The notes beneath the pieces are model-generated. The model saw nothing but the letters and a program-made list of their open reading frames with translations. It ran no database searches and was not told where the DNA came from. From Candidatus Levyibacteriota bacterium (GTDB lineage Bacteria > Patescibacteriota > Microgenomatia > Levybacterales > GWA1-39-11), in the NCBI GenBank assembly GCA_018062815.1, contig JAGORM010000002.1:92325-156324 (forward strand): 64,000 bases of DNA. Reading direction: 5' to 3'. This document shows, piece by piece, positions 3,550 through 61,452 of the stretch; the stretch's first letter is position 1; the number at the start of each line of letters is the position of its first letter. Both the position numbers and the translations under genes were made by a program.

Positions 3550-3550
3550 A

Positions 3551-4405
3551 TCATCTTGAACTGTCTATGTACTGATTTACAGTATCATACTTTGAATTAT
3601 TTGCTTCTTTAACTTGAGCTAATATAATAGATCCGCCTGGGGATACTAAAACTTGAGATGTTTGACCTGGTTTAAGCATAAAAAATGCATCTTTAAATAA
3701 CGGATTCCAACTTGAATTTTTAGTTACATATTCATTTGTGAAAAGCTTTATTGTTGGGTCAAAGCTTGCAGAATTTTTAATTTGATTATATGCTTCTTCT
3801 AAGCTTTCTCCTTGTGTTGTGAGTGCACGAATTTGATTGAGAGTGTCTACGGCCTCACTTGCGTCTTTATCATAGGTGTCACTAAGTGGATTTTTAAAAA
3901 CGCTCACAAAATCTATAGTTCTTGAGTTAACAACCTGTTTTTCTAAACTATCCTCAGTTTTATTTTGAAGTGTTTGGTAGCTAGCGTCTTCGGTGGAGGA
4001 AATTTTAGAATTTGAAATTCCTGCTTTAATTGCTGCCTGTCTAATCTGAATGTTTTCTGCCGCGGCAGCGCGCAGTTTTGGATCGTTTTTTGCCTGATCG
4101 TAGTATGGTCCCCATATTTTTTTCATTTCACTATCTATTTCTGCTTTTGTTAAGGATGATGTAAGAGACTTTTCTTCAACGCTTACAGTGTTTTGGGTTT
4201 GGGTATTCAATTGATTAGATAAAAACAAAAAGGCGCCAACTGGTACTATAACAAGAAATCCAAGTATAACTCCTAACACATAAAACTTATTTGGCGAAAA
4301 TTTTTTATAAGACGGTGGATGAATATTTGCAGTATTCTCCATCTGAAGGTTTCTTTGCTGAATATATTTTTCGTATCTGTCTTTAAATTGATTTTGTGGA
4401 TCCAT
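3551..4405 (-). CDS. membrane-anchored protein with a degenerate PpiC-type (parvulin/SurA-like) C-terminal domain
   Basis: Single TM (FYVLGVILGFLVIVPVGAFLFL). C-term FMLKPGQTSQVLVSPGGSIILAQVKE loosely matches the parvulin FxLKPGEISxPVxTxxGYHIIKV. Confidence 0.4.
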   Translation of the reverse strand: MDPQNQFKDRYEKYIQQRNLQMENTANIHPPSYKKFSPNKFYVLGVILGFLVIVPVGAFLFLSNQLNTQTQNTVSVEEKSLTSSLTKAEIDSEMKKIWGPYYDQAKNDPKLRAAAAENIQIRQAAIKAGISNSKISSTEDASYQTLQNKTEDSLEKQVVNSRTIDFVSVFKNPLSDTYDKDASEAVDTLNQIRALTTQGESLEEAYNQIKNSASFDPTIKLFTNEYVTKNSSWNPLFKDAFFMLKPGQTSQVLVSPGGSIILAQVKEANNSKYDTVNQYIDSSR

Positions 4406-4476
4406 AAAGAAATAAAACCGATAAATTCGGGTACTTCTTTATAGTAGAGAGAAAGGGAAAAAGTGTCAAGGAGAAG

Positions 4477-5439
4477 TTAATCACCTCTTCTTGTTGCAAA
4501 TCCGCGAAGAAGTATGTTTAAATCCCGTGGATCCATGACTCCGTTATCATTTAAGTCAGAAAGTACTTTATATTCGTTTGTGCAATCTGTTCCAGCATAG
4601 CATGACAAAAGAATAGAATAGTCATTTATGTCTAATAAATTATTTGAAGATCCTTCTGATTGAATATCACCTGAGACCACCACAACAGGAGGTGTAGTCG
4701 CGGTTATACTTTGTGATAACTGATGAACTCCGGGTATAGTTTTTGTGAGTGAGTTTGCGGCGCGCACTTTTATGGTGTAAGGTCCGCTTGCAATATTATT
4801 AAATATTGCGTTTCCCTTATATACACCATTGTCATAGGTAAGTGTTGCGGTTGTTTTTCCTGCTTCAGTATTTTGCTCATCATATGCGTATACATCAAAT
4901 GCTCTGGAGGGGTGTTGCGGTTGGTTATTTTCTCCCAATGCAGTGTTTGAGCCAATTCCAGGAAGGGAAACTGCAAGAGTTATTGCTGCACCCTGTGATG
5001 TGCTCGGTGTTGTACTTAAAGCAGGAGAGGGTATGGGTGTTGCTGTAGGATTTGGAGTTGGAGTAACCATAATGCACTGAATGCAGTTGGTTTGATTTGG
5101 ATTATTAGGCGAGTCTTGGCAGGATTTTGCGAAACTTCCCTGATAGGGACCAGAGGGAATGTACTGCCAACATGAATATTGTCCGACTTCACAGGAGACA
5201 TGGTCGGTTCCGCCGCAATACTTAACTAATGTAGCGGAAGAAGGATTTTCGGATTCTGAGTTAGTTGTTGTAAAGTCCACGGAAGCTGCACGTTGACGGA
5301 TATCTTGCTGTTGGTTTGTAAGCATAACCGTTACCGGGATAGAAAGAATAAGAACAACAATTATCAGAGACCCTATCACCCTTTTTTTGGAAGAAAGGAA
5401 AAGTTCTTCAAAAATACTGCCAAAAGAGCTTGGATTCAT
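4477..5439 (-). CDS. secreted Pro/Thr-rich protein with a C-terminal dockerin-like Ca-binding repeat
   Basis: N-terminal TM is followed by LTNQQQDIRQRAAS. The C-terminus has GDIQSEGSSNNLLDINDYSILLSCYAG and SDLNDNGVMDPRDLNILLRGF. The second segment fits the dockerin loop D-x-N-x-N-G-x-x-D-x-x-D-L-x-x-L-L. Confidence 0.55.
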   Translation of the reverse strand: MNPSSFGSIFEELFLSSKKRVIGSLIIVVLILSIPVTVMLTNQQQDIRQRAASVDFTTTNSESENPSSATLVKYCGGTDHVSCEVGQYSCWQYIPSGPYQGSFAKSCQDSPNNPNQTNCIQCIMVTPTPNPTATPIPSPALSTTPSTSQGAAITLAVSLPGIGSNTALGENNQPQHPSRAFDVYAYDEQNTEAGKTTATLTYDNGVYKGNAIFNNIASGPYTIKVRAANSLTKTIPGVHQLSQSITATTPPVVVVSGDIQSEGSSNNLLDINDYSILLSCYAGTDCTNEYKVLSDLNDNGVMDPRDLNILLRGFATRRGD

Positions 5440-5517
5440 ATACTAATCATAGGTAGATTTTTTTATTTTTGCAAGACCTTGGGATTTGCTGTTTTATAAA
5501 AGTGCAGAATTTTAGAT

Positions 5518-5964
5518 TTAGTTTTCTGTAGTTGAAACAGTACAGGATGCAAGAGCGTTAGGTAAATTGTTCTCCATAGGTTTAGACGGATCAAGAAGTG
5601 ATATTTTCCAAGTAGTTTCAGGTTTATCAAATTTATAGATTATTGTGTCTTCCTTTTTTTCAACAATTGAATATCCATCTGCGGGTTCAATGTATGGTTC
5701 AGGTGCATATGGGTATGAGACTACTAAAAGTTCAGATGTTTCCCCCGGTCTTATTGTTCCAGGCGTAAAGATACATGCGGGTGTACTATCTGCTGCTTGT
5801 TGTCTGACATCTTGCTGCTGATTTGCAAGATAAAATGTTAAGGGGACAGCACCTAACACAAACAATACAAAAAACACGCTAATTGTTCTTTGCGGAGAGG
5901 AAAATAGTGCTTTTCCTAGTACATACCCAATTGAGCGTTTTTCAACAACTTTCATTCCATACAT
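5518..5964 (-). CDS. small secreted protein sharing the TM-NQQQDxRQxAA N-terminal module with the 4477..5439 protein
   Basis: The N-terminus reads VFFVLFVLGAVPLTFYLANQQQDVRQQAAD. Confidence 0.45.
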   Translation of the reverse strand: MYGMKVVEKRSIGYVLGKALFSSPQRTISVFFVLFVLGAVPLTFYLANQQQDVRQQAADSTPACIFTPGTIRPGETSELLVVSYPYAPEPYIEPADGYSIVEKKEDTIIYKFDKPETTWKISLLDPSKPMENNLPNALASCTVSTTEN

Positions 5965-12208: not shown

Positions 12209-13093
12209 CTATGTCCCATGCATTTTCCTAGCTTTAGCATATGCGGAAATTGCCTGTGCAGTATCTTGAAGTGTGACTTGAGGGAAACGCTTTTCGTATG
12301 TTATCCATTGTGTATTTTTCCCGTTTAGCCATCCTATGTCAGAAGAATGAAAAGCTCCAATACCTTTCCCCATAGTTATCTGTTCACCTGCTCTAATAGC
12401 AAGATCAACTGTTCTTATAAGTCCACCCGAATCACGCCATTTCCATATCTCTTCCGGTGATAGAGTAATTTTTTTATTTAGTGGGAAAATTTTTCCGGTA
12501 TTTAACGCGTCTTCATGTGTTCTCATGTCTTGATCAAATCCCCCAAAATCAACCGCAATTCCTATTACTTTTCCCGGATTTTCTTTTGTCTTTTCCTCAA
12601 GTGCGTGCATATTTTCTATTAGCTTAGGATAATCTTTATATACTAATGCCATATTTTCTCTAATCTTTTTCCTTCCTAAGTGAATAAATCTTCCTCCTAT
12701 TAAATCTAAATGCTCTTCAATTTTTGGAATTGTTTTATTCATGAGAGTCATAAGTCCATCAATTTCTTTTGGTGGCCTGAGCCAGTTATCAGTTGAGAAT
12801 CCCCATGCAATAGCTGTTTGTGTTGGGATATCTTTATGGGAGAGCACTTTAAGTTGAAGGAGTAAATTGTCTGTTCCCATTTGATAGGCTGTGGAAGTCT
12901 CAATTCTTGCATCTTGTGCAAATCTTCTTTGACCATCCGGGATGATGAGAACAGACTTTGGAAACTCCTCATCGCTGAGACTTTTGAGTTCAGGAGAATT
13001 TCTAAAATTCACTTTGTAGGCCAAGTCTATCCACCTTTTTTTATCCAGATCACGTTTCAGCAAATTGTATGAATGTGCCTCTTTAAGGTTCAT
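12209..13093 (-). CDS. uppS: isoprenyl transferase of the undecaprenyl-diphosphate synthase (cis-prenyltransferase) family
   Basis: VLIIPDGQRRFAQ (compare IIMDGNGRWA) and AIAWGFSTDNWLRPPKEIDGLMTL (compare YAFSTENWKRP). Confidence 0.6.
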   Translation of the reverse strand: MNLKEAHSYNLLKRDLDKKRWIDLAYKVNFRNSPELKSLSDEEFPKSVLIIPDGQRRFAQDARIETSTAYQMGTDNLLLQLKVLSHKDIPTQTAIAWGFSTDNWLRPPKEIDGLMTLMNKTIPKIEEHLDLIGGRFIHLGRKKIRENMALVYKDYPKLIENMHALEEKTKENPGKVIGIAVDFGGFDQDMRTHEDALNTGKIFPLNKKITLSPEEIWKWRDSGGLIRTVDLAIRAGEQITMGKGIGAFHSSDIGWLNGKNTQWITYEKRFPQVTLQDTAQAISAYAKARKMHGT

Positions 13094-13179
13094 GAGAGAA
13101 ACAATAGTACTACTTTAGCCGTCATAGCGCAACTTTTATGACTATCTTTTACTTATAAAATTTATGATATAATCTGGCT

Positions 13180-14442
13180 ATGAAGGTAAAAGATGTAATG
13201 CAGACCTCAGTCATTTCAGTTTCTGAAGACGCTCTTATCAAGGAAGTTGCTCAGATGATTTTCTCCATAGGTATTTCAGGCGCACCCGTTGTTAAGGGGA
13301 ATAATCTGGTTGGTATTGTTACGGAAGAAGATATCCTAGCACATATGTACACAAATGATAAAAAGAATACGCAGGATTATATGGGAGTTCAAGACTTTAA
13401 TTTGGTAGAGCATAATATAGTTAGCCTTTTGGATAAACCGGTAAGTACTATTATGAATAGAAATGTTTTATCAATAACTGGGGATGAGCCTGTCATGAAG
13501 GCGCAAGGGTTAATGCTTAACAAGAAATTCAGTAGGGTACCGGTAGTAAACAAAAAAAAAGAACTAATCGGGATAATTTCTCAAGGAGATATTTTTAGAG
13601 AAGTTTTAAAAGAAGAAATGCCCGTATTAGAGAAAGATCGATTCGCGAGTTTTATGTCGACAAACTATGACATGATGATTGATTGGGAGCAGAGATTTGA
13701 GGAAGAATTTCCATCTCTTTTTAGAATATTTAAAAAAGAAAGCGTGCAAAAAGTTTTAGATTTGGGCGTGTGGAGTGGCATATTTAGTATAGGGCTTGCA
13801 CAAGAGGGGTTAAGCGTAACTGCGCTTGAACAAAATAAACTTATGCTAGAAATTGCAAATAAAAAACGAGAAGCCCTTTCACCCGTAATAAAAGACAATA
13901 TACAATTTTTCAACACAGACTACTCAGATATTAAAAGTGTAACAAATGGTGAATATGATGCAGCGCTTTGTTTAGGTAATGCACTTCTGTACATGCCGGG
14001 GGATCTGTCTCATATATTTACGCAAGTGCATAGTGTGTTAAAGCAAAATGGGATATGTATTATTCAAATAATAAATGTGAATCGTGTGTTAGAGAAAAAA
14101 AAGAGACTCCTTAATTTTCAAATTCAAAAACCATCCGAACTTTCTGGTCATGAAAGATTATTTTTGGAGTTTCTTGATAAAAAGGACAAAGACATAGTAC
14201 GTCATAATCTTGCAGTTTTTGATTCATCTGGGGGAAGTTGGGTATACCAGGGGGGAACGGCTATAGATATGAAGTTTGTTCAGGAAAAAGAAATTTCTAA
14301 AACTTTGAAAGAAGTTGGGTTTTCAGATATATCAGTTGGAGGGTATCAGGGCGAGTATCAGGGTGAATATAGTCCTATTTCTTTTATTAAACCATTCGAT
14401 GCTTCTACAAGCGATTGGATGACAATTGTTGCAAGAAAGTAG
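13180..14442 (+). CDS. CBS-pair domain fused to a class I SAM-dependent methyltransferase
   Basis: Two CBS motifs (VMQTSVISVSEDALIKEV..., IMNRNVLSITGDEPVMKA...) followed by the MTase motif I VLDLGVWSGIFSIGLA. Confidence 0.6.
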   Translation: MKVKDVMQTSVISVSEDALIKEVAQMIFSIGISGAPVVKGNNLVGIVTEEDILAHMYTNDKKNTQDYMGVQDFNLVEHNIVSLLDKPVSTIMNRNVLSITGDEPVMKAQGLMLNKKFSRVPVVNKKKELIGIISQGDIFREVLKEEMPVLEKDRFASFMSTNYDMMIDWEQRFEEEFPSLFRIFKKESVQKVLDLGVWSGIFSIGLAQEGLSVTALEQNKLMLEIANKKREALSPVIKDNIQFFNTDYSDIKSVTNGEYDAALCLGNALLYMPGDLSHIFTQVHSVLKQNGICIIQIINVNRVLEKKKRLLNFQIQKPSELSGHERLFLEFLDKKDKDIVRHNLAVFDSSGGSWVYQGGTAIDMKFVQEKEISKTLKEVGFSDISVGGYQGEYQGEYSPISFIKPFDASTSDWMTIVARK

Positions 14443-14455
14443 TTTTTAATACGAA

Positions 14456-15391
14456 TTATTTTTTCCCTTCGCAAATTACTACGGGAAGATTCTTTATCGG
14501 GAATCCATTGTTAAATAGATAATCATATCCTCTTGCCGGTTTTACAGGTGCTTCACTTACCGCGATATTACTAAAGTGAGGACGGAGTAGGGCTAATTGC
14601 TCCGCTGACAAATGACTTCCTGATATATCTTCCATGCCTGGATAGTATGCAAAAAATGTAAATACTCCCTCTTTGCTGTACAGTATTTTTGTGAGCGTTG
14701 CGATATCTTCTATGTCATTAACGCCTGTTTCCGTTTTTTCTAGAGGGAAAGTATCTGAAATTATAATGTTAAATTTTTTCTTTTCATTCTCAAGACGTTG
14801 TGTAACCTCTCTTGCATCTCCTTCATGTATGACAATATCTATATCATATTTTATTCCTGATCTTTCACTCTTATCCTTTATGGATCTCATCATAATATCT
14901 TTCCATGCATAAACCCCAAATTCTTCATTTTGTAAAACATCCTGATTAAGTTCAATAACATGATATTCCCCGGATCCTCTTTGCATAAGATGATCAATTA
15001 CTTTTGTCCCTGCAATATTAAGTCCTGCGCCTCTCTCTAGTACTCTTAATTTGTGCTTGGGGTTCATGCCTTTTATGGTTTTTGTTGCAAAAGCTTGATC
15101 TACTGTTTCAACAGCCCATGGAGCCTCGCAAGTATCCATTACTTGCATGGTTGTATTATCGGCCTCTATAAGCAATCTTTTCCCGTCGCCATATCGGTAA
15201 GTATTTCCATCCCGATCTGTTATACGACCCCCTGGATAGCCAATAACCTTAGCGGATGCATTTTTCCACAACTCTATGGAAGACGTTAAATCTTTAGTGT
15301 CAGTATTGTCTATTGCCGACTCTTTATTTAGTCTAAATTTTGATTCTGCAAGCGGAATTCCGCCCAACGTATTTTCGGATGAGTATCCCAT
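14456..15391 (-). CDS. putative SAM-dependent methyltransferase or spermidine-synthase-like protein
   Basis: LRVLERGAGLNIAGTKVIDHL resembles a Rossmann-fold motif I. Otherwise unrecognised. Confidence 0.3.
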   Translation of the reverse strand: MGYSSENTLGGIPLAESKFRLNKESAIDNTDTKDLTSSIELWKNASAKVIGYPGGRITDRDGNTYRYGDGKRLLIEADNTTMQVMDTCEAPWAVETVDQAFATKTIKGMNPKHKLRVLERGAGLNIAGTKVIDHLMQRGSGEYHVIELNQDVLQNEEFGVYAWKDIMMRSIKDKSERSGIKYDIDIVIHEGDAREVTQRLENEKKKFNIIISDTFPLEKTETGVNDIEDIATLTKILYSKEGVFTFFAYYPGMEDISGSHLSAEQLALLRPHFSNIAVSEAPVKPARGYDYLFNNGFPIKNLPVVICEGKK

Positions 15392-15496
15392 ATTTTTAGA
15401 CGCAAAAACAACCGAGTATACAAATATATCCGGTTTGAGACTTATTATATATCCTAGAGCGTGAACAAGTCAAGAAAACTACGAGTAAAAGGAGTA

Positions 15497-16852
15497 TTAA
15501 GGTAGGGGGAACTTTATTGCAAATTCTTTAACCTCACGACCAATTTTTTGTAAATTTTTATTACTCATTATTTCTTTTTTCTGGTTTTTCCACCATTCAG
15601 CTCTTTTTTCTTTCTCTTTTGGAGCTTCATTTCCCAAAACCTGATTTACCGCGTCATTCATCCATTTTGCTACTTTTTTCATGTCCCGTTCCTTGAGCCC
15701 CCGAGTAGTTATAGCGGGAGTTCCCAATCTGATTCCGGACGGGTAGAATGGTGGGTTAGTATCAAAAGGCACGCCGTTTTTGTTTAGCACTATGCCTGCT
15801 TGCTCTAGTGCAAGCGCTGCTACATTCCCGCTTACTTTTTTGTTTCTAAGGTCTATTAAAATCAGATGATTGTCTGAGCCTCCGCTAACTAAACTAAAAT
15901 TATATTTAAGTAGCTCCTCAGCAAGTGCTTTGGTATTTTTTACAATCTGTTCACCATATCTTTTAAATTTTGGGGAACTTGCTTCTTTTATGGAAACAGC
16001 AATTGCTGCTGTTTGATTATCATGTGGGCCTCCCTGAAGCCCAGGAATAATAGCAGTATCAATAAGCTTTGGTAGATCAGGGTTTTTTGTAATTCCCTTT
16101 TCAGTTACCATAATAAGTCCCCCCCTGGGCCCTCTTAACGTCTTGTGAGTTGTTGTGGTTACAATATGTGCATAGGGAACAGGAGAGGGGTGAACGCCTG
16201 CTACAACTAATCCTGCGATGTGTGAGATATCAGCAAGTAAATAAGCTCCTACCTTTTCCGCAATAGCACCAAATTTCTTAAAATCTATAATTCTGGGATA
16301 TGCAGTGAAACCACAGACAATAATATCTGGTTTTTCAGCTAATGCCAGTTTTTCAATAGCCGCATAGTCAAGTTTTCCGTCTTTCCCCAGTTCATATAAT
16401 ACAGACTTAAAGAACTTTCCTGATGCTGATTGAGGCTGTCCGTGAGTTAAATGCCCTCCAAAGGCAAGAGAAAGTCCCATTATCTTTCCTTTTAACGGTT
16501 GCAAAAGTGCAAAGTATACAGCAAGATTCATAACTGACCCTGAAAGGGGCTGCACGTTAACATAGGGGATATCCAGTAATTTTTTAATTCTCTCTTGAGC
16601 CAAAAGTTCAACCTCATCAGCGACCGCGTTTCCCTGGTAGTATCTTTTCTTAGGATATCCCTCTGAATATTTGTTGTTAAGACTGGTACCAAGTGCTTCA
16701 AGAACCGCAGAAGATGCGTAATTTTCTGAGGGGATCATTTCTAGGACTTCTTTTTGTCTCTTGTCCTCTGCTTTTATAAGTTTAAAAATTTCAGGATCTT
16801 GCTGCTTGAGGTTCATACAGTTCAATATACTAAAAAAAATCCTTACAAACAA
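15497..16852 (-). CDS. glyA: serine hydroxymethyltransferase
   Basis: EMIPSENYASSAVLEALGTSLNNKYSEGYP...THKTLRGPRGGLIM. The likely true start is MNLKQQD near 16816. Confidence 0.9.
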   Translation of the reverse strand: MFVRIFFSILNCMNLKQQDPEIFKLIKAEDKRQKEVLEMIPSENYASSAVLEALGTSLNNKYSEGYPKKRYYQGNAVADEVELLAQERIKKLLDIPYVNVQPLSGSVMNLAVYFALLQPLKGKIMGLSLAFGGHLTHGQPQSASGKFFKSVLYELGKDGKLDYAAIEKLALAEKPDIIVCGFTAYPRIIDFKKFGAIAEKVGAYLLADISHIAGLVVAGVHPSPVPYAHIVTTTTHKTLRGPRGGLIMVTEKGITKNPDLPKLIDTAIIPGLQGGPHDNQTAAIAVSIKEASSPKFKRYGEQIVKNTKALAEELLKYNFSLVSGGSDNHLILIDLRNKKVSGNVAALALEQAGIVLNKNGVPFDTNPPFYPSGIRLGTPAITTRGLKERDMKKVAKWMNDAVNQVLGNEAPKEKEKRAEWWKNQKKEIMSNKNLQKIGREVKEFAIKFPLP

Positions 16853-16897: not shown

Positions 16898-17479
16898 ATG
16901 AGTAATAAAAAGATACTGGTAGGTGTTGTTTTTGCAGTTGCTATGTTGGGTGGCGCTATTTTTTTAGCTTTTAGAAATTATCAGTCGCAAGTAAATGAGA
17001 TGCCAGTGAGTGCTTTGAGTGAATTTAGTAATGCCAATTTGGATGAAAGTAATTATAAATCAGCAAATCTTGCTCAGTTTTCTATTTCATTCCCGAATTC
17101 TTTTACTTCATCTGAACATATACTTTCAGGTGATGAAGGAGTGTCGCTTGTTTTAAATTCCGAAGACCTTGATAAGAATTTGGCGTCATTTACAATAGAA
17201 AAATACCCCGTAGATAAAGTGGAATTAAAATCATTAATTGAGTACTTTAATAGATCTAAGTTGTCACAAAGAGATATTTTTTTAGGTCAGACAAAAATTC
17301 AGGCAGTATATTTTACAGGAGCGGCTCCTTCACTACAGGGGCCAGTACAGCAAAATGTTATTCTTCTAAGCCATAATGGGTATGTATATAAAATACAGAT
17401 GTCGTACACATCAGAGGAAAGAAATGTTGAGTTAGAGGAAGAATTCAAGAATATTTCCTCAACAATTAATTTTCTATAA
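16898..17479 (+). CDS. hypothetical membrane-anchored protein
   Basis: N-terminal TM (ILVGVVFAVAMLGGAIFLAF); no motif. Confidence 0.35.
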   Translation: MSNKKILVGVVFAVAMLGGAIFLAFRNYQSQVNEMPVSALSEFSNANLDESNYKSANLAQFSISFPNSFTSSEHILSGDEGVSLVLNSEDLDKNLASFTIEKYPVDKVELKSLIEYFNRSKLSQRDIFLGQTKIQAVYFTGAAPSLQGPVQQNVILLSHNGYVYKIQMSYTSEERNVELEEEFKNISSTINFL

Positions 17480-17489
17480 TAAATAGTGG

Positions 17490-18482
17490 CTAGTCGCCAA
17501 TTACTCCTCCCCATTCAACTGCTGTAAATCCTTTTCTTTCAGGAGCGGGAGTAATAGTGAGTTGTATAACGTTTTTAGGATTTATGAGAGGTGCAAAATA
17601 AGCAATAAACTCTATGAAAGTATCAGGTTTGGGTGTAATTAAAACACTATCCTGACGTTCTTTTTCCTCTTTTTCTAATACGGAAAAGAAGATATAGTTA
17701 GTATCAAGTTCTTGTAGTCGTGGGATCCAGAAGTCTAAAAATTCATCTTGTTCGTCTTTTTTTGTAAGACCCAGCAATATGATTTTATCCCTTAAGTTAC
17801 TTTTCAGGTTTTCTTTTGAGAGAACAATTCCTTTTTTGGGACGGTTAACTTTTCCCGATTCTATTTCATAAAATAATTCTCTGTATGTTTTTCCCATATA
17901 TTCAAGTTTTCCGCTAGGGTGTGCGAGTACATTTTTCCATCCACCGGATGGGTAGAGCGGATCACTAACAATTATCTTTCCTTGCGTTTTAACTGTCACA
18001 TTTACATATGTTTCAGTAGTTGGGTAAAGATAGATAACTGGTTTTCCTATGCAGTATGATCCATCTCCATAGTTAAGGTTTGTCTCACAAAATATGTATT
18101 GATTGCAAAAGTCAGCCTTAGCTTGAGTATCAAACGGGTTTTCAACTACACATCTCTTATTTTTGCATGTGAACATTCCTTGACGTGCTTTGCATATGCA
18201 TGGAAGTGTAACCGGTTTTCCGGTGTCAACAGGGCATATGGATGTGTCTTCCTGGTCTGGAGTTGATTCGGTTACTGTAGGGACAAGGGTTTTGGGTTGT
18301 GCCGGGTTAAAAGTATCTATCTGTATGTTAGCGCGTGGATTATTTGATGCAATTTTTGCAGCTTTAGGAGTTTTTGCAATTAATATTGCGGCAAAAACAG
18401 CACATGTCACAAGAAGTAAAATTCCTATTTTGATAAATGATATTCTATGTGCCTTTTTACTAATGTTTTTCTTTCTTTTCAT
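17490..18482 (-). CDS. hypothetical secreted Cys-rich protein
   Basis: N-terminal TM, a Cys-rich block (CPVDTGKPVTLPCICK...CKNKRC), and an uncharacterised C-terminal domain. Confidence 0.35.
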   Translation of the reverse strand: MKRKKNISKKAHRISFIKIGILLLVTCAVFAAILIAKTPKAAKIASNNPRANIQIDTFNPAQPKTLVPTVTESTPDQEDTSICPVDTGKPVTLPCICKARQGMFTCKNKRCVVENPFDTQAKADFCNQYIFCETNLNYGDGSYCIGKPVIYLYPTTETYVNVTVKTQGKIIVSDPLYPSGGWKNVLAHPSGKLEYMGKTYRELFYEIESGKVNRPKKGIVLSKENLKSNLRDKIILLGLTKKDEQDEFLDFWIPRLQELDTNYIFFSVLEKEEKERQDSVLITPKPDTFIEFIAYFAPLINPKNVIQLTITPAPERKGFTAVEWGGVIGD

Positions 18483-19079
18483 TTATTTTGTGTTAATTTC
18501 CAGATTTACTTTTCCTAGTACAACATTTGGAGTTTGTGGAGAGGACGCAAAAGATGCTTGGTCAATTTTTATAATTGCGGAAGTTGTTCCCTGTGTAAGT
18601 TTTCCGGTTACTTTTGCAATTATTCCCTTCCCTTTTGGGTATGGAATTGAAGTGGGTATCAGATAAGACTGGCTAATTGTTCCTTGTTCAGGGTTGCTTT
18701 GTTTGATTCCTGCGGTGAGATTTACAGAATAGGATAAGGCAGAGGAAGGATCATTTACGGATATAATTTTAACATTACTAACTTGAAGCGGATCATACGA
18801 TAGCGCAATTGTAATTTTAGAGACGGGGATGCCATAGCTATCAAATAGTATGCTTGAGGTAAATGTGGACTGTTTATTTATGGTTATTGTGTTGGGTGAG
18901 AAAGAAACCATCATAGTAGGAGATTCTTGTTTGGGTGTTTGAGTAGGAACTATTTTTTGAGTTAATGAAGGAGGAGGGGTATTTTCATTGAGAAATACAA
19001 AAAAAACAATAAATATAAAAATAACTATAGATACTAAAAATAAAATAAGCGTCAATTTTTTTTTGAAAACACCAGTCAT
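18483..19079 (-). CDS. membrane-anchored cohesin-like domain protein
   Basis: ITIALSYDPLQVSNVKIISV...GKGIIAKVTGKLTQGTTSAIIKIDQASF resembles the cohesin pattern and the 11562..12194 protein. Confidence 0.4.
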   Translation of the reverse strand: MTGVFKKKLTLILFLVSIVIFIFIVFFVFLNENTPPPSLTQKIVPTQTPKQESPTMMVSFSPNTITINKQSTFTSSILFDSYGIPVSKITIALSYDPLQVSNVKIISVNDPSSALSYSVNLTAGIKQSNPEQGTISQSYLIPTSIPYPKGKGIIAKVTGKLTQGTTSAIIKIDQASFASSPQTPNVVLGKVNLEINTK

Positions 19080-19093
19080 ATCTTTATCTTATA

Positions 19094-21226
19094 TCATATA
19101 CATACTCCTGCGCCAGGATTGTTTGTAAAGACACAGGCAGTACCCGTTTTCATTTGTAGGCACTGATTATTTCTGGTGCAGCTTGTTACGTTTACTTCAG
19201 AGTTGGTGGATGCTGTACTGCCTGAAGTACCTGTGCAGCAGATATTTCCTTTTCCTGATTTCTGACATGAATAATTATGTCCCAATGGAGAAGCCAGAGT
19301 GCCTGATTTACACGTGTTTCCTGACTCACAGTGATAAGAGCTTGTATTGCAGTATGCGCCTGATTCTGAGGGGTCTTTGTATACACAATATGATGTTGCA
19401 GTTCCCGTACTGCTTGTACACTTAAATTCAGGGGCACAGTCGCTATTCCCATTATAACAGTGGTCGTTTTCCCTTCCTGATCCTCCCGTATTTCCTCCAC
19501 CACCTGATGAGGGAGCAACACAACTAGATTTATTTGCCATGCATTTCCCTTGCGCTTCACAATAGCGTTCAGTAAATCTACAGCAGTAAGTCTGGTTTGA
19601 GGAGTTATTTGCGTCTTTCCATCCGGGGTAGCATGCGTTATCTGAGCTTCCTCCGCAAGAGCTTCCCTGAGTTGTGCATGATTGACCTATCTGATTATCG
19701 CTGTTATTGCCGTTTTCACCGGTATTGTTTCCCGGGGGAGGATTTTCTTTTTTTTGATCATCATTTTTGGGAGGACTATTATTATTTCCAGTGTTTTCAA
19801 GACAACAAACAGAGCGAGAACTGCCATACGCGTTTGCGCATGCTAAATTTGCTTCTTGTTGCGTAGCGTTTGTGTCAGGCTTAAATCCAGTGCCACATGC
19901 CGTTGCCTGACAGGTATTCACTTTTCCAGAAGGACCTATGTTATTGCATGCGCTTGGACGGAATGTGCACTTAGCTCCATCCCAATAAGGAGTAGGGTCT
20001 TTACAGGTCTGTCCTTGAGGAGGCTGAGGGAGTGTGCCTGAGTTGTCTTGCACCCAGGGGAATTTGTTACATATCTTCATGAGACCGTTTTTAGGTGTAA
20101 AATCATAGGTTTTATCAGCACAAAGATAGACATCATAATATTTACCCGTCGCATAGGGATTTGGGGTTGATTTTGCTTTTTGATCTGTAAATAGACCCAG
20201 TTTATAGTTTTCATTTGTGGGTTGGGTTGTCATGCATATTGGCCCGTAATATCCGTTGGGATAGGAATCTGTATTAACCCCGTTTTTCTCTTTGCAGATG
20301 ACTGTGGTAGAAGATTTACCCGTGCCGGGATTTTGTTGGAAATTATTACCTTCACCTTCAAAATAAGCGCTTTTTTTAAGTGTCTCTTTTTCTCTTAAGT
20401 TAAAATTTCCTCCTGGGAAAACGCCTTGATCACCCATTATGGAATTTTTATATTCTGGGGAATTAACGGGATATCCTATCTCGTTCGGATGAGAAAGTCC
20501 AAATGTATGTCCTAGTTCATGAGCTATAGCTCCCGTGCCCTGTCTGCTAGTGGGCATTTTTTCAGAAGTACACCTATCAACGGAATTAATCGGGTCATTT
20601 TTGTAATAATATTTTTTTATTCTATTACAGTTTTTGTCCAACTCTGGGTAAATGGAGACATCTCCAATTACGGCAGTCGCAAGTTCACCATTTGCGCCCG
20701 CGTATCCTCCGCCACCCATAAATGCTACAATATTAATTGTTCCAAACTGAGGTCGTCCTATTTCTTGAAGTATATTGCCCATGCCATCTTTTTGAATACA
20801 CTCTGTCTCTCCGTTGCTGCACCAATACCATTCTGAATCTTTTTTCCCAATAACTGTTTTTACCGGTTGCAAAACAAATGTTTTCCCGTTCAATTGCTTA
20901 CCGTAATATGTGCGTATTTCATCCATTTTCTGATTAATATGATTTACTACAGCGTTATCTACTGGATAGTCTGTTGGAAAAAATACTATTGGTTGAACAG
21001 AAAAAGCATTATCCGCTATGCGAGAAGTTGTGGGCTGATTTACCTGGTTTGGGTTGCGAGTTAAACTATTTAAAAAAGAAAGTCCTCCAAACGGAACAAA
21101 GATTGCTATCGCAACGGTTGCAAGTGTGAGGAGAGACAAAAAACCTGAGGACTTATTTATTGTTTTATTGCTAGGTTTAATAAAAGAAGTTTTCATAAAA
21201 TAGGTTTGTTTTAAGAAATCACACAT
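19094..21226 (-). CDS. secreted zinc metalloprotease of the metzincin type with a long Cys/Gly/Asn-rich C-terminal region
   Basis: AHELGHTFGLSHPNE is the HExxHxxGxxH signature, with a downstream SIMGD Met-turn candidate. There is an N-terminal TM/signal. The roughly 300-aa C-terminal tail has many Cys, with N/G/S-rich low-complexity stretches. Confidence 0.6.
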   Translation of the reverse strand: MCDFLKQTYFMKTSFIKPSNKTINKSSGFLSLLTLATVAIAIFVPFGGLSFLNSLTRNPNQVNQPTTSRIADNAFSVQPIVFFPTDYPVDNAVVNHINQKMDEIRTYYGKQLNGKTFVLQPVKTVIGKKDSEWYWCSNGETECIQKDGMGNILQEIGRPQFGTINIVAFMGGGGYAGANGELATAVIGDVSIYPELDKNCNRIKKYYYKNDPINSVDRCTSEKMPTSRQGTGAIAHELGHTFGLSHPNEIGYPVNSPEYKNSIMGDQGVFPGGNFNLREKETLKKSAYFEGEGNNFQQNPGTGKSSTTVICKEKNGVNTDSYPNGYYGPICMTTQPTNENYKLGLFTDQKAKSTPNPYATGKYYDVYLCADKTYDFTPKNGLMKICNKFPWVQDNSGTLPQPPQGQTCKDPTPYWDGAKCTFRPSACNNIGPSGKVNTCQATACGTGFKPDTNATQQEANLACANAYGSSRSVCCLENTGNNNSPPKNDDQKKENPPPGNNTGENGNNSDNQIGQSCTTQGSSCGGSSDNACYPGWKDANNSSNQTYCCRFTERYCEAQGKCMANKSSCVAPSSGGGGNTGGSGRENDHCYNGNSDCAPEFKCTSSTGTATSYCVYKDPSESGAYCNTSSYHCESGNTCKSGTLASPLGHNYSCQKSGKGNICCTGTSGSTASTNSEVNVTSCTRNNQCLQMKTGTACVFTNNPGAGVCI

Positions 21227-21264
21227 TATTACATTAGCATGTGTAATCTATAAGTCAACAGGTC

Positions 21265-21780
21265 TTAGCTACAGTTTGTTTTTTCAAATTCCTTTTCTGC
21301 TTTTATTGTTCCCCCTGTCAAATCATTCCCTGATGCAGTGCCGCCTTCATAAAGAATTACTTGCCAGGATTTAGTATTAAATCCATCTGTATTATCCAAC
21401 ACCAAATCATTCACTTGAACGTTTTGTTGATTTGGTTCGAAAGAGTTATAGATGTTTTCATTTATGGTTACCGGCGTAAAAATTTCTCCATTTTTGATTT
21501 CTATTTTGTAGTGTCCATTGGCTGTTCCATGAAACGCAAGGGTAACATTTGAGGTATTATTTGTGCTGTCACACTGTACGCTTGAGGGGAGTTCTATTCT
21601 CCAGCTACTGGAAGGAGTTGCCTGCGGAGATCCAGTATCATTTGCATTTCCATTATTTTTCTTACTGTTTTCTGCCTGAAATAAAAACTGTCCACCTACA
21701 AGTAAAAATGCACCAACAATGACTATAAATATAATAAGAAATTCAATTTCGCCCCTGGTAGTTTTTAATAATTGCTTCAT
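21265..21780 (-). CDS. TadE-like pilin-like (pseudopilin) secreted protein
   Basis: N-term TTRGEIEFLIIFIVIVGAFLLVGG has a Gly followed by Glu at +5 then a hydrophobic helix. This is the class III (prepilin-type) signal as in TadE/TadF. Confidence 0.4.
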   Translation of the reverse strand: MKQLLKTTRGEIEFLIIFIVIVGAFLLVGGQFLFQAENSKKNNGNANDTGSPQATPSSSWRIELPSSVQCDSTNNTSNVTLAFHGTANGHYKIEIKNGEIFTPVTINENIYNSFEPNQQNVQVNDLVLDNTDGFNTKSWQVILYEGGTASGNDLTGGTIKAEKEFEKTNCS

Positions 21781-22811
21781 GGTGTCGGAGTAAGGTTTGT
21801 GCTACCTCCTGTTTCCTCGCAGATCTTGTCCGCAATCTGCCCATAAATTGCCTTAATATCCTCAGGTTTTGTTGTTTTATAAAATGAATTGGGTGAGGCA
21901 ACAGCTTGCATCATGGTTGTAAGCTTGCTTTCAAACGGTCCATCTGTCTTTGGATCAAATACCAGAATCGAGAACACTCTGACATTTTTTCCATTTATGT
22001 TTTTTAGTGCTTGTATTTGTTGGGCAATTTGAGGATTTGTGGTCGGATCCTGATCCGCATCAAAGCAACGGCACGTTCCGGTTTGGTACGCACACATTGG
22101 ATATCTAGCGCTGGAAAAAGATGAGCATGCTGTTGCTGTTGGTACTCCAACACCGTCTCCTTCAGGAATACCATCAGAAATAAAAACCAGATTAAATGAA
22201 TTGTCTTTAAATTTAGGATCAGAAACTGCTTTTGTTAGATCCTCAAGCTCTGCTGCAAAAGCGGTGCGCGTATTAGTTCCGCCTGAGGCTACCAACTGAT
22301 TCACGGCTGCATTAAATTGTGATTTGTTGTTTTTATAAAAATCAATTTCAACCGGTCGGGAAGTTGCTGTTGAGCCTGTATCACTTGAGCTATAACGCCT
22401 AAGACCTGTGATAGAATCATTCGTAAAATTGCTTGCAAAGTCTTTAAGTGAGGATTTAATTATTTGTATTTTATTACCGCGTTCCATTGAGCCTGATGTA
22501 TCAACAAGAAAGTCAATAGCAGCACGGTTACTACATGCTGCAAATCTTATGGTTTTTAGCTGTAGCGCATTTTTTTGTGTTGAGTTTTCGCGGATTGGTT
22601 CACCTATGACATTACTACCCGATTCAGACAGCTTAAATTGAGGACCACCAGAAACCAGAAGAAAAGCACCAAATATTATGACTCCAATAAGTAAATAAAG
22701 CGCAACTTCTCCGCGTTGCCAGAAGAGAAAACTCTTTTTTAGTGTGTGTTTTGATAAATTTGAGGATTTTTTTTTCTTTGAGTTTTTATGGGGAATAGAT
22801 TTTTTCTTCAC
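21777..22811 (-). CDS. von Willebrand factor A domain protein with a TadE-like pilin-type N-terminus (TadG-like putative pilus-tip adhesin)
   Basis: N-term QRGEVALYLLIGVIIFGAFLLVSGG is paralogous to the upstream protein's N-terminus. The MIDAS motif reads FLVDTSGSMERG. It overlaps the previous gene by 4 bp. Confidence 0.55.
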   Translation of the reverse strand: MKKKSIPHKNSKKKKSSNLSKHTLKKSFLFWQRGEVALYLLIGVIIFGAFLLVSGGPQFKLSESGSNVIGEPIRENSTQKNALQLKTIRFAACSNRAAIDFLVDTSGSMERGNKIQIIKSSLKDFASNFTNDSITGLRRYSSSDTGSTATSRPVEIDFYKNNKSQFNAAVNQLVASGGTNTRTAFAAELEDLTKAVSDPKFKDNSFNLVFISDGIPEGDGVGVPTATACSSFSSARYPMCAYQTGTCRCFDADQDPTTNPQIAQQIQALKNINGKNVRVFSILVFDPKTDGPFESKLTTMMQAVASPNSFYKTTKPEDIKAIYGQIADKICEETGGSTNLTPTP

Positions 22812-22983
22812 ATTTTATTGTATATATATGTAGTTTTATTAGTCAACAATTAGTTTAAAAACAGGAATAGTAATATTTATTCTTGCTTGTAAGTTAAAAT
22901 CTTCAGTCTCTTAAAGACGTAGTGAAGTATCCTAAATTTGTGCTACAAAATAATATACAGTGGGTAAAGCCATGAAAGCTTTA

Positions 22984-34561: not shown

Positions 34562-34930
34562 GTGGAAGAGAAAACTGACAAGAGGGTATTAATAGTAGAT
34601 GATGATACAGAATTTATTAAGGAGTTCTCACAGAAAATAGAAACGCAAGGATTACAGGTTCACAGTGCAATAACGCCAAAAGAAGCACTTGATTATATTG
34701 CTCAAAACGAAGTTGATTTTATAATACTCGATTTTGTTATGCCTGAAATGGACGGATACTCTGTATATCACATCATAAATAATGATATGAGAAAAAATAT
34801 TCCAACAATAATTTTAACTAATTTTCCAAACGCAAAAGATATGCCACAAGATCTTGAAATATATGTTAAATCTGAAACAAATCTCAACAAGTTAGCCGCA
34901 GAAATTAAAATGAAATTGAGCTCAAAATAA
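34562..34930 (+). CDS. standalone response-regulator receiver domain protein (CheY-like)
   Basis: VLIVDDD...IILDFVMPEMDGY...IILTN. Confidence 0.75.
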   Translation: MEEKTDKRVLIVDDDTEFIKEFSQKIETQGLQVHSAITPKEALDYIAQNEVDFIILDFVMPEMDGYSVYHIINNDMRKNIPTIILTNFPNAKDMPQDLEIYVKSETNLNKLAAEIKMKLSSK

Positions 34931-34932
34931 AT

Positions 34933-35310
34933 ATGAACGAAGATACAAAGAAAAAAATTCTTATAGTAGATGATGATGTAGAGTTTACAAATCGTTTTTC
35001 GGAGCGAGTGGAAGCATCTGGTCTGCACGCCGTTGTTGCGGTTACGGGTAAAGAAGCGCTTGACTATTTAACGGAGCATGAGGTTTCATTTATTGTCTTG
35101 GATTTTGTTATGCCTGAAATGGACGGATATACTTTTTATCATATATTGAAGCATGATATGAGAAAAAATATTCCTACTGTAATACTTACAAATATGGCAG
35201 GAACTCAAGATGCAGATGATCTTGAAGTGTTTATCAAATCAGAAACAAACCTTGATGAACTGATAGGTAAGATTAAAAGCCGCGTAGACGAGTTGTCGAA
35301 TGTTAAATAA
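34933..35310 (+). CDS. standalone response-regulator receiver domain protein (tandem paralog)
   Basis: ILIVDDD...IVLDFVMPEMDGYTFYHILKHDMRKNIPTVILTN is near-identical in its core to the upstream gene. Confidence 0.75.
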   Translation: MNEDTKKKILIVDDDVEFTNRFSERVEASGLHAVVAVTGKEALDYLTEHEVSFIVLDFVMPEMDGYTFYHILKHDMRKNIPTVILTNMAGTQDADDLEVFIKSETNLDELIGKIKSRVDELSNVK

Positions 35311-37189: not shown

Positions 37190-38884
37190 TTACCTCCAGA
37201 AATAGTAGAAAGGAGTGTTTTTGGACTTGTTAACGGAAATTTCATTAGTTGCTGAGTTGTTATTTTGATCATACGCAACTACCTTTACTTTGTGTTGCCC
37301 CTTAGATATATTTTTTGTATTCCATGAATAGGTAAATGGTCTTTGAGTATCAACCCTATTTAATTTTCCGTCGATATAAAACTCTACTGCTGAAACGTTT
37401 CTATTATCTGTTGCGTTAACTTGAATTGACGTTGTATTTTTAGATATTAAGGAATTGTTTCCTGGATTTAGAATTACAATTTCAGGCGCGAGTGTATCAG
37501 CTGCGACGGGTGTAGCTGTAGGACGAATAGTTGGCGTTGGTGTTGGAGGTCTGGGTGTAGCTGTAGGACGAATAGTTGGCGTTGGTGTTGGAGGTCTGGG
37601 TGTAGCTGTAGGCAGAGGAGTGACCTTTGCAGTTGGAGTAGGATTTTGCGTAATGGTTGTTGGAGATACAGTTGTTACTGTAGGAGATGGAAGAATTAAA
37701 TTCAGAGTAAATGGTCTCCTATACATTGTGTGATAGACAGTGTTATGTTGTCCTTTTGAATAGTATAAATATCCATTCTGATTAGTTTCCCATGCACCGG
37801 GTGTATTTGGAGAAATTAGGGTAGCGTAGTAATACCATACGTCTCCAGTTGCTAAGCTTCCAAGATTTTTAGGAAATGTGATCGGTATCATTTGAGGCGT
37901 TTCAAAAAAAATTCCATCTGTAGACAGAGTGGTGTAAAAACCGTTTGATGCCTGAAATAAAAGCAGATACCTATTAAGATATGTATTAAAGCTTATGTTT
38001 GCAAGAGAAATAAATACACTTTCAGAGACCGGTTCAGGACGGGAGATAACAGGCGTGCTTTCTCCTCCCAAGCCTGGAGTAGAGAATTCCCCGTTATGCC
38101 ATTTTTTATAACTTCCTGGAATAGCGGCTAAATTGAATGGTGCACGGGCTAGATATATTTGATCAGGACTACCAGTACTCCAATCTGTGTAATATACATA
38201 AATGTAATCTCCGATTTTTATAGCCGAGGGTTGGCCGGCGCCACTTACTCGTGGTTTATCGCAACTTACATCATGTGTTCTTCCTGTAATTATTGCGCCT
38301 TTGCGGTTCCATGATATTCCTCCATCGGTAGATGTAGCTACCCCAACCGTTGCAGTATAAGGATTATTTGGTTTTCCTGGGCAGTGATGTTCAGCGTGAT
38401 AAATTCCGATTAGCTCTCCAGGGTTTTGACCAGGCAATACACTCCCGAATCCCACATAATCCGCGTCAAATTCACTACCCCCAGGATTGCTAGGGAGAAA
38501 AATAGGAATAGGGTTTCCGCTTGATGTTCTTGCTTGAGGAGTTAAATTGTTTAAATCTGACCCGCTATATCTATATGATCTCACCTCCGAAGTAAGCCAG
38601 AGTTTTATGCCGTTTGCGTCTTTTACCATGGAAAGGGTAGTATCAGGCCAGCTTCCCAATAATTCGTTGGGAATGTTTGGAAAACCTGCTTCCTCAGCTC
38701 CCAGCGTTATTGTGTATTGTGTACTGCTTTGAGCAGGTGCCCTGTAGTCAAAAAGATGATTTGTTTTCAAAAGAGCATATGTTCCGATACCCAAAATTGC
38801 TAAGACAATAATAGAGAAGTAAGGATTGCCAATAAGTCGGCGAAGTGAAAATTTATTTTTTTTCCTTTGGATAGCTTTCACCAT
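37190..38884 (-). CDS. secreted or membrane-anchored protein with a beta-propeller/glycosidase-like N-terminal domain, a PT repeat linker and a C-terminal Ig-like domain
   Basis: N-terminal TM. The linker has PRPPTPTPTIRPTAT repeated. The C-terminal segment VEFYIDGKLNRVDTQRPFTYSWNTKNISKGQHKVKVVAYD resembles an Ig-like domain. Confidence 0.45.
   Translation of the reverse strand: MVKAIQRKKNKFSLRRLIGNPYFSIIVLAILGIGTYALLKTNHLFDYRAPAQSSTQYTITLGAEEAGFPNIPNELLGSWPDTTLSMVKDANGIKLWLTSEVRSYRYSGSDLNNLTPQARTSSGNPIPIFLPSNPGGSEFDADYVGFGSVLPGQNPGELIGIYHAEHHCPGKPNNPYTATVGVATSTDGGISWNRKGAIITGRTHDVSCDKPRVSGAGQPSAIKIGDYIYVYYTDWSTGSPDQIYLARAPFNLAAIPGSYKKWHNGEFSTPGLGGESTPVISRPEPVSESVFISLANISFNTYLNRYLLLFQASNGFYTTLSTDGIFFETPQMIPITFPKNLGSLATGDVWYYYATLISPNTPGAWETNQNGYLYYSKGQHNTVYHTMYRRPFTLNLILPSPTVTTVSPTTITQNPTPTAKVTPLPTATPRPPTPTPTIRPTATPRPPTPTPTIRPTATPVAADTLAPEIVILNPGNNSLISKNTTSIQVNATDNRNVSAVEFYIDGKLNRVDTQRPFTYSWNTKNISKGQHKVKVVAYDQNNNSATNEISVNKSKNTPFYYFWR
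37512..37612. repeat. perfect 45-bp tandem direct repeat (2 copies plus an 11-bp partial third)
   Basis: gtagctgtaggacgaatagttggcgttggtgttggaggtctgggt occurs at 37512..37556 and again at 37557..37601. It is in frame and encodes PRPPTPTPTIRPTAT. Confidence 0.85.
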
Positions 38885-61080: not shown

Positions 61081-61452
61081 ATGAAAAAAATACTGATCAT
61101 TGAAGATGAGGAAGCATACAGAAGAATTATTTATGATCAACTCATAAAGAATGGATATGAGGTTATCGTAGCCGTTGATGGAGAAGAGGGATTAAGAATG
61201 GCATTGAAAGACAAACCAAATCTTATACTCCTTGATCTTATGATGCCTAAATTAGAAGGTTTAAAAATGTTAAATAATTTAAACAGATTTAAAGAAGGTC
61301 TTTCTATACCTGTATTTATACTTACTAATGTGAATGATTCAAATATAACTACTGAGGCTATGTACAGTCATGCAAGTAAATATTTCGTAAAGTCAGATAC
61401 GAAAATAGAAGATTTACTAGGGAATATAAATACATATTTAAAAGGGGGGTGA
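61081..61452 (+). CDS. standalone response-regulator receiver domain protein
   Basis: ILIIEDE...LILLDLMMPKLEG...FILTN. Confidence 0.75.
   Translation: MKKILIIEDEEAYRRIIYDQLIKNGYEVIVAVDGEEGLRMALKDKPNLILLDLMMPKLEGLKMLNNLNRFKEGLSIPVFILTNVNDSNITTEAMYSHASKYFVKSDTKIEDLLGNINTYLKGG

Follow-up and report, generated by a model that had tools for sequence, protein, structure and literature searches.

Tip adhesins with a von Willebrand factor A (vWA) domain are known from sortase-assembled pili, such as SpaC of L. rhamnosus, and RrgA and GBS104 likewise belong to this group. A vWA module can also be grafted on a pilin, as in PilB of S. sanguinis, where the class III signal is canonical, the pilin module is complete, and the vWA domain with its metal ion-dependent adhesion site (MIDAS) follows the N-terminal hydrophobic helix (PMC8179133). 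The tight adherence (Tad) pseudopilins TadE/TadF and TadG (PF07811, PF13400) begin with an N-terminal Gly and a hydrophobic helix, behind which TadG-type proteins carry a vWA domain. In archaea, the bindosome of Sulfolobus, which depends on PibD and on the Bas homologues of PilB and PilC, contains large non-pilin ectodomains preceded by a [KR]-G boundary and a helix of hydrophobic residues, with no acidic residue at +5 (PMC4371748). In bacteria of the Candidate Phyla Radiation (CPR, Patescibacteria), type IV pili occur almost throughout the phylum and are the only means of host attachment with experimental support so far (PMC11623550). Here we describe a five-gene operon of a Candidatus Levyibacteriota bacterium, a tiny CPR organism of the symbiotic type, located on a stretch of 64,000 nucleotides (contig JAGORM010000002.1, positions 92,325 to 156,324; hereafter the window), which encodes a vWA protein, a metzincin-like protease, and three other proteins with a predicted N-terminal anchor. 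On balance, and by a modest preference, we regard these products as a membrane-tethered surface module for adhesion and proteolysis and not as Tad or type IV pseudopilins.

The vWA protein, the protease, and their operon

The operon (22811..17490, minus strand) begins with the vWA gene (21777..22811; 344 amino acids [aa]; GTG start), followed by the genes for a 171-aa anchored protein (21265..21780), the 710-aa metzincin-like protease (19094..21226), a 198-aa anchored protein (18483..19079), and a 330-aa anchored protein (17490..18482). Because the start of the second gene overlaps the vWA stop by 4 nt, the following junctions are gaps of 38, 14, and 0 nt, and all five genes share one strand, they were assigned to a single operon. 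A first-pass annotation of the interval covering the first three genes had placed the protease upstream of the vWA gene; by direction of transcription, it lies downstream. The operon is bordered on one side by rpsB-tsf, which is divergent from it (start at 23083), and on the other by glyA, encoding serine hydroxymethyltransferase (SHMT, 16852..15497), past a small convergent open reading frame (ORF). The G+C content of the window was ~36-40%, and the database proteins closest to those of the window were labelled Candidatus Levybacteria or Levyibacteriota (CPR/Patescibacteria).

In Pfam and NCBIfam scans of all six proteins of the cluster, together with N-terminal fragments at E<=10, VWA was the sole match. 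The PADLOC scan found nothing, and the locus is therefore not a known defence system. A literature search on vWA proteins in Patescibacteria found no paper on the locus. Promoter and terminator counts in the region were not above those in shuffled sequences. A promoter-like TTGACT-18-TACAAT (22817-22846, minus strand) ends 6 nt ahead of the GTG start of the vWA gene; it might weakly hint at a leaderless or near-leaderless transcript, and such sites were not commoner than in shuffles.

The 344-aa protein scored 34.7 bits against Pfam VWA (cut-off 23.8) and 34.3 bits against VWA_2 (cut-off 27). The MIDAS, already noted as intact in the first-pass annotation, proved to be invariant: D104, S106, and S108 of the DxSxS motif (D104 T S106 G S108; 22488..22502, minus strand), as well as T179 and D213, do not vary in an alignment of the 20 homologues found, all of which come from CPR or metagenomes. 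Most of the six Cys residues are also invariant in this alignment, and their conservation fits an extracytoplasmic location of the protein. A profile search of genome contigs with the same alignment returned mainly generic MIDAS proteins of other phyla, with only the loci L010 and L011 being relevant.

Structure prediction, suggested earlier for this protein, was performed with AlphaFold2 (AF2). The model (mean predicted local distance difference test score, pLDDT, 79) showed a vWA fold at residues 97-333, preceded by an isolated helix at residues 31-53 (22653..22721, minus strand), which ends in SGGP, and by disordered residues 55-85 (pLDDT <50). The vWA domain gave 204 Foldseek matches in the PDB at E<=0.001; among the matches listed, all were vWA or integrin I-domain proteins. 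The top matches were vWA modules of pilus adhesins, with SpaC as the best (E 8e-11) and PilB of S. sanguinis (PDB 7ba2) as the fourth. The protein shares with SpaC the intact MIDAS and the inserted arms. Unlike the sortase-pilus adhesins, it has an N-terminal anchor, its C-terminus reads ICEETGGSTNLTPTP (...GGSTNLTPTP), with no C-terminal LPXTG and hydrophobic tail in the sequence, and no sortase gene lies nearby. PilB resembles it in the position of the vWA/MIDAS module behind an N-terminal hydrophobic helix and differs from it in the pilin part, as no N_methyl match, Glu5, or pilin head was found here. The vWA protein would bind a ligand through the MIDAS metal, as integrin I-domains and pilus-tip adhesins do.

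The protease starts with a hydrophobic anchor (SSG-FLSLLTLATVAIAIFVPFGG). Its metzincin-like catalytic domain spans ~residues 60-290 and is followed by the Cys-rich tail. The first-pass annotation had recognized the 710-aa protein as a metzincin by its zinc motif HELGHTFGLSH, and this assignment was borne out by its relatives. The motif occupies residues 236-246 (20489..20521, minus strand); along it, H, E, G, H, L, and H reach >=90% conservation in 62 relatives (the three His residues and the Glu being H177, E178, H181, and H187 in the alignment of the domain), and the Gly of HExxHxxGxxH is present in their consensus. Met264 (M205 of the domain alignment), a candidate Met-turn residue located 18 residues past the last zinc His, is also >=90% conserved. 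Because the residues of the zinc motif and the downstream Met are conserved in the relatives, the catalytic domain bears a metzincin signature, and the protein may act as a metzincin-type zinc endopeptidase at the cell surface.

The HExxHxxGxxH motif with a Met-turn, and the order of a catalytic domain followed by a Cys-rich module, recall reprolysin/ADAM-type metzincins. In contrast to these, the protein reached the Pfam cut-off of no named peptidase family (reprolysin M12B, matrixin M10, M66, or M64). The best sub-threshold match was Reprolysin_5 (20.8 bits vs. a cut-off of 27), and Reprolysin_5, Metallopep, and M66 gave sub-threshold matches in 12-37 of the 62 relatives. Only six whole-protein homologues were found among 5.8 billion sequences, and the catalytic domain (residues 60-300) retrieved 155 cluster representatives at E<=1e-3 among 1.84 billion proteins.

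The tail (residues 291-710; 19094..20356, minus strand) contains 34 Cys residues. It had been described as Cys-rich, which holds, and as ~300 aa long, which falls short of its actual length of 420 aa. EGF-like or other Cys-rich adhesion modules had been considered for it; at E<=1, no Pfam family, and hence neither a disintegrin nor an ADAM_CR or EGF model, matched residues 293-710, and the tail contained no internal repeat. The last 400 aa of an 808-aa Cys-rich protein encoded at the related locus L005 share 47% identity with the tail. Because the homologous tail at L005 follows an unrelated M64-like peptidase, the tail can be read as an independent module, which, presumably disulfide-bonded, would provide the protease with a separate means of targeting or binding. 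At L005, the ORFs of the M64-like peptidase (12701-13828; 26.4 bits vs. a cut-off of 26) and the 808-aa protein (13845-16271) are 16 nt apart; a frameshift or an assembly error may have split one gene into this pair, or the pair may be a real two-gene counterpart of the 710-aa protein.

Other C-terminal modules were found in relatives of the metzincin domain, namely, Big_7 (five relatives), fn3, and CARDB. The relatives P0025 and P0026 have a dockerin-like C-terminal segment, and two members of alignment A3 matched Dockerin_1. A C-terminal module of the pattern CDPY..G.S.G...IQD....R.EVA....NKGSC......DKT.I.DL...RR...GLE was observed in L008 (2443-4512), L009 (441-3557), P0025, and P0026; it is common to metzincin relatives, another metallopeptidase (HELLHTFGIRH), and an unrelated 246-aa secreted protein, and probably serves related CPR as a sorting domain of the dockerin-like kind.

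The 171-aa protein begins with TTRG-EIEFLIIFIVIVGAFLLVGG; its helix is followed by a linker of low complexity and then by a conserved domain of ~115 aa flanked by C70 and C170. The N-terminus had been called paralogous to that of the vWA protein; aligned pairwise, the two were 43% identical over 42 aa with an E-value of 6e-6, which exceeds chance for such a comparison. Homologues of the 171-aa protein directly precede three unrelated metallopeptidases within vWA loci (in the window and L003, in L005, and in L001), and this arrangement hints that it may have a docking or inhibitor role. The 171-aa protein was also considered as a constant companion of the protease family, and this was rejected: P0025 and P0026 are in other contexts, where their neighbours are proteins sharing the dockerin-like C-terminus.

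For the 198-aa protein, no match was found in Pfam (E<=1), NCBIfam, or PDB sequences (E<=10), and the earlier description of it as cohesin-like finds no support in these sequence searches. It is 50% identical to a 201-aa protein of L005. PDB sequence searches with the protease and the 330-aa, 198-aa, and 171-aa proteins, as well as with a profile of the 330-aa protein family, yielded nothing useful.

A gene pair conserved in CPR and its N-terminal module

The vWA gene and the gene for a protein of the 330-aa type (the partner) form a conserved pair at the rpsB-tsf/glyA locus in many CPR lineages; in the window, this pair is split by a lineage-specific insert of the 171-aa, protease, and 198-aa genes. 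The frame of rpsB-tsf, the vWA gene, a gene for a 350-440-aa protein of the 330-aa type, and glyA was found at L001, L002 (whose contig ends before glyA), L006 (on a 1.14-Mb contig), L011, and L067. Because relatives keep both genes between rpsB-tsf and glyA, the two were considered the conserved core of the locus. L011 is a variant, in which the second protein consists of the N-terminal module only and is encoded before the vWA gene. L003, whose vWA protein is 87% identical to that of the window, has the same five genes and, like L005, keeps the order of rpsB-tsf, vWA, partner, and glyA. L005 encodes two vWA proteins, a 171-aa homologue, the M64-like peptidase, the 808-aa Cys-rich protein, and homologues of the 198-aa and 330-aa proteins. 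The protein encoded after the vWA gene at L001 has a C-terminal domain 41% identical to that of the 330-aa protein (E 4e-35) and a weak N-terminal match to the 171-aa protein (pairwise E 0.004).

Additionally, a small anchored protein of 190-250 aa is encoded on the opposite strand after the partner gene in nearly every locus. In the window, this is the 193-aa protein (16898..17479, plus strand), the gene of which is convergent with the operon and is a neighbour kept beside the pair. Its counterparts were located at 17979-18566 in L005, 11062-11742 in L006, 11111-11737 and 12795-13535 in L007, and 8041-8715 in L067, and a comparable ORF is present in L003. The 195-aa protein of L005 matched the 193-aa protein of the window with an E-value of 5e-9, and no family match was found for these small proteins.

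The 330-aa protein comprises a transmembrane helix (residues 16-36), an NIQIDTF motif, a Cys-rich segment with eight conserved Cys residues, and a 185-aa C-terminal domain (KPVIYLYP...EWGG). The AlphaFold model showed the helix at residues 16-36, disorder to ~residue 80, a small Cys-rich part, and an alpha/beta C-terminal domain with a pLDDT of mostly >90, for which neither a Pfam match nor a PDB structural neighbour was found. The partner family has at least 627 homologues at E<=1e-3. Among the 120 homologues listed, none had a Pfam domain, and the few named ones belong to CPR. An alignment of 113 members revealed ~36 invariant residues, including E202, E206, E244, K274, D278, R316, and E323. 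The family often occurs in several tandem copies, such as P0030, P0032, and P0048 on one 4.9-kb contig and three copies in L007. A family of this size without annotation and without a solved structural relative is new.

Both the vWA protein and its partner, in all genomes examined, open with the same N-terminal module of ~85 aa, consisting of a basic leader, a Gly, a polar residue, ~21 hydrophobic residues often ending in GG, a spacer, and a motif of the form LQLKTxxF (in full, [KR][DN][SN]-L-Q-L-K-T-[LF]-x-F). In the vWA protein of the window, a Lys-rich leader of 32 aa, ending in R33-G34, precedes the helix, and the motif reads LQLKTIRF (residues 83-90; 22542..22565, minus strand). The distance from the helix to the motif is fixed at 27-32 residues in the vWA family, with a median of 28 in the partner family. 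LQL was invariant in 19/19 vWA homologues, and the Gln was present in 109/112 partner members. A 127-aa protein at L011 (5536-5919), encoded directly before the vWA gene, has the leader, a Gly-rich boundary, the helix, the spacer, DNLQLYTF, and a Pro/Gly-rich tail; since it holds little else, the module can exist alone.

G34 is kept in >=90% of the vWA homologues, and the residue next to it is variable. Boundaries of R-G/E, R-G/E, K-G/Q, and R-G/Q (the slash follows the Gly) precede 20-22 hydrophobic residues, and RG/E, RG/Q, KG/Q, RG/N (MRG/N), KGG/I (KGG/IE), RG/F, and SG/Q recur in the 120 partner homologues listed. By an automatic criterion, a boundary Gly was detected in 15 of 21 family ORFs and in 5 of 40 other single-pass anchored ORFs of the same DNA (Fisher p 6e-6); homology among the sequences means that these counts are not independent. 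The 330-aa and 198-aa proteins of the window itself have no boundary Gly. Because both families carry the same module, the sequences suggest that the vWA and partner proteins may be sorted by a common route or associate with each other. The nameable domains of the locus are ordinary; what is new here is a conserved CPR locus, a shared N-terminal module with fixed spacing, and a large unannotated partner family.

Pilin-type processing and other readings of the locus

In the reading that we prefer, each operon product would be kept in the membrane by its single N-terminal hydrophobic helix, acting as a signal-anchor, and the low-complexity linker would carry the ectodomain outward. The vWA and partner proteins would form an ancient CPR pair that is sorted, or associates, through the common module, with the protease added in some lineages. 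The first-pass annotation had proposed a pilus-tip adhesion-protease module. Its notion of a surface module with an adhesin and a protease is retained, given the invariant MIDAS, the structural matches to pilus adhesins, and the metzincin site; its pilin part does not stand by the criteria examined, with no acid at +5, no match to a pilin or Tad model, and no pilin head. The Gly that it had pointed to, at the junction of leader and helix, is real and specific to these families. Two points weigh against a plain signal-anchored adhesion module. Ordinary signal-anchors are not expected to show a Gly at the boundary after a charged -2 residue, and this feature was rare in the other anchored ORFs. 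The pair is kept at one housekeeping locus across distant CPR, which looks more like core envelope machinery than a host-specific adhesin. The data show the identities of the domains, their conservation, the gene order, and the common module; the membrane topology, a function in adhesion, the part played by the protease, and any pairing of the vWA and partner proteins are inferred from these.

The N-termini of the vWA and 171-aa proteins had been assigned to the TadE/TadF type with Glu at +5. The residues after the Gly read E-V-A-L-Y in the vWA protein and E-I-E-F-L in the 171-aa protein, which places the Glu at +1 and, in the latter, also at +3. In the 20 vWA homologues, +1 is E, Q, T, G, S, or Y, and +5 is Tyr or another hydrophobic residue and never acidic; in bacterial pilins, an acidic +5 is "nearly always" present (PMC4371748). 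The TadE model suggested earlier as a check gave no match, and neither did the others: for PF07811, PF13400, PF07963, and PF04021, none was found at E<=1 with whole proteins or at E<=10 with six N-terminal fragments. The 113 partner members had no pilin-signal/N_methyl match (PF07963/TIGR02532) at E<=0.1, and no pilin motif of the G[FM]TLIE type occurs anywhere in the window. The AF2 models of the vWA and 330-aa proteins showed a helix followed by disorder and no lollipop pilin fold. The locus shares with Tad pseudopilins the Gly, the helix, and a vWA domain behind it as in TadG-type proteins, and differs from them in the absence of the G/XXXXE[FY] motif and of the PF07811 and PF13400 matches, and in the long disordered linker after the helix.

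The window had been reported to contain no pilus ATPase or secretin gene, and none was found, nor a prepilin peptidase gene, among the window ORFs scanned. No tad gene (TadV, TadA/CpaF, RcpA) was found among these ORFs or in nine related contexts, and pilus genes were absent from flanks of <=12 kb in the nine contexts, except for a lone canonical pilin gene ~9 kb off in L006. This pilin reads QKG/FTLVELLIV and carries N_methyl (PF07963), and the vWA and partner proteins of the same genome read SSGMIYVVVIL and GGAIYIVFIVL. A gene for an anchored protein that by eye resembles the small opposite-strand proteins described above lies in L006 beside the canonical pilin gene (19784-20446). Since type IV pili occur in nearly all of the phylum (PMC11623550), a prepilin peptidase is likely to be present, and its presence would decide nothing.

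All prepilin peptidases need Gly, Ala, or Ser at -1, and a charged residue at -2 matters for the archaeal enzymes only (PMC4371748). G34 provides the small residue at -1 that is seen in bacterial type IV pilins. Because the boundary combines the Gly at -1 with a charged -2 but lacks an acidic +5, it fits the archaeal class III rule (charged -2, Gly/Ala/Ser at -1, and a hydrophobic H-domain) and fails the bacterial one, the fit being a pattern match and not evidence of cleavage. Listed processing sites include KGQV, KGQI, and KGQL, and non-pilin bindosome subunits, which are large proteins, bear just such signals (PMC4371748). Accordingly, an alternative with some claim to attention is that the proteins carry archaeal-style class III signals, are cut after the Gly, and depend for display on type IV pilus machinery with genes elsewhere, serving as tip or minor subunits or forming a bindosome-like assembly. 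The bias of the boundary Gly with R/K at -2 towards the two families, its recurrence in the partner homologues, the near-universality of type IV pili in the phylum (PMC11623550), and the precedent of PilB for a vWA module on a pilin (PMC8179133) speak for it. We nevertheless consider it unlikely: the acidic +5 is missing, no member matches N_methyl, TadE, Tad, or Class_IIIsignal models, the helix leads into Gly-Gly-Pro and a disordered linker and not into an alpha1-C helix and a pilin head, the leaders of the vWA proteins are long (20-34 aa), two proteins of the operon itself have no Gly, no pilus gene adjoins the locus in the nine contexts, and the family counts come from homologous sequences. 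The bindosome is moreover archaeal, whereas the present organism is a bacterium, with canonical pilins that have Glu5.

A broader form of this alternative, which we hold to be slightly less probable again, is an undescribed, phylum-wide surface-display system of CPR, in which unrelated ectodomains (the vWA domain, the fold with no PDB neighbour, and protease partners) on one module would be cut by a prepilin peptidase and assembled by pilus machinery, as a bacterial counterpart of the bindosome or as tip subunits without Glu5. If the module is a substrate of the prepilin peptidase, the archaeal type of class III display of non-pilin proteins would be extended to bacteria; if it is not, the module still serves as a marker by which surface proteins of CPR can be listed. 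The locus supplies candidates for the recognition and holding of hosts by CPR: the MIDAS-bearing vWA protein, the partner family, and a module that may mark a common route of sorting or assembly.

The vWA and partner proteins might also be housekeeping components of the cell wall or of division, with the protease as an unrelated passenger. This would account for their constant position next to or near rpsB, tsf, frr, rseP, and glyA, and it is in line with the presence of the pair at the same locus in distant lineages, including the 1.14-Mb contig, with the enzyme-like appearance of the partner family (627 members, ~36 invariant residues), and with the absence of the protease, 171-aa, and 198-aa genes from most loci. 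However, reduced genomes can keep a gene order without any functional link between the genes, binding is typical of vWA-MIDAS ectodomains that have disulfides, and tandem partner copies fit diversifying surface proteins, which leaves this explanation with a small share of our expectation. Ordinary cleaved Sec signals, in which signal peptidase I would act close to the terminal GG of the helix and set the proteins free into the medium, have in their favour the basic n-region, the hydrophobic core, and the small residues (S/V-G-G) at its end, but appear improbable, as the hydrophobic stretch of 21-23 residues has the length of a membrane span, the GG of the vWA family is followed by Pro, which disfavours cutting by signal peptidase I when located after the cleavage position, and the fixed distance of 27-32 aa from the helix to LQLKTxxF suggests that the helix stays in the mature protein.

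Other genes of the window

Five consecutive genes on the minus strand (1830-5964) encode N-terminally anchored proteins of the surface type, several of which are Pro/Thr-rich or contain Cys, and this region looks like a second surface-protein cluster. Among them, the 320-aa protein (4477-5439) ends in a dockerin-like segment, DLNDNGVMDPRDLNILL, and the 248-aa protein (1830-2576) has an additional C-terminal hydrophobic segment. A 564-aa N-anchored protein with DUF4185 (below the cut-off) and a Big_7 Ig domain is encoded at 37190-38884 (minus strand) and is likely another surface protein.

Two tandem pairs of paralogues of ~120-125 aa were also found (34562-35310 and 61081-61826), with identities of 57% and 35% within the pairs and ~24-32% between them; the pair at 61081-61826 follows a gene for a PAS/HAMP histidine kinase. 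In addition, a gene on the minus strand (50113-51156) of this small genome encodes a type IB topoisomerase, identified by Pfam Topoisom_I, which is named eukaryotic topoisomerase I catalytic core, and by the bacterial Top1B N-domain.

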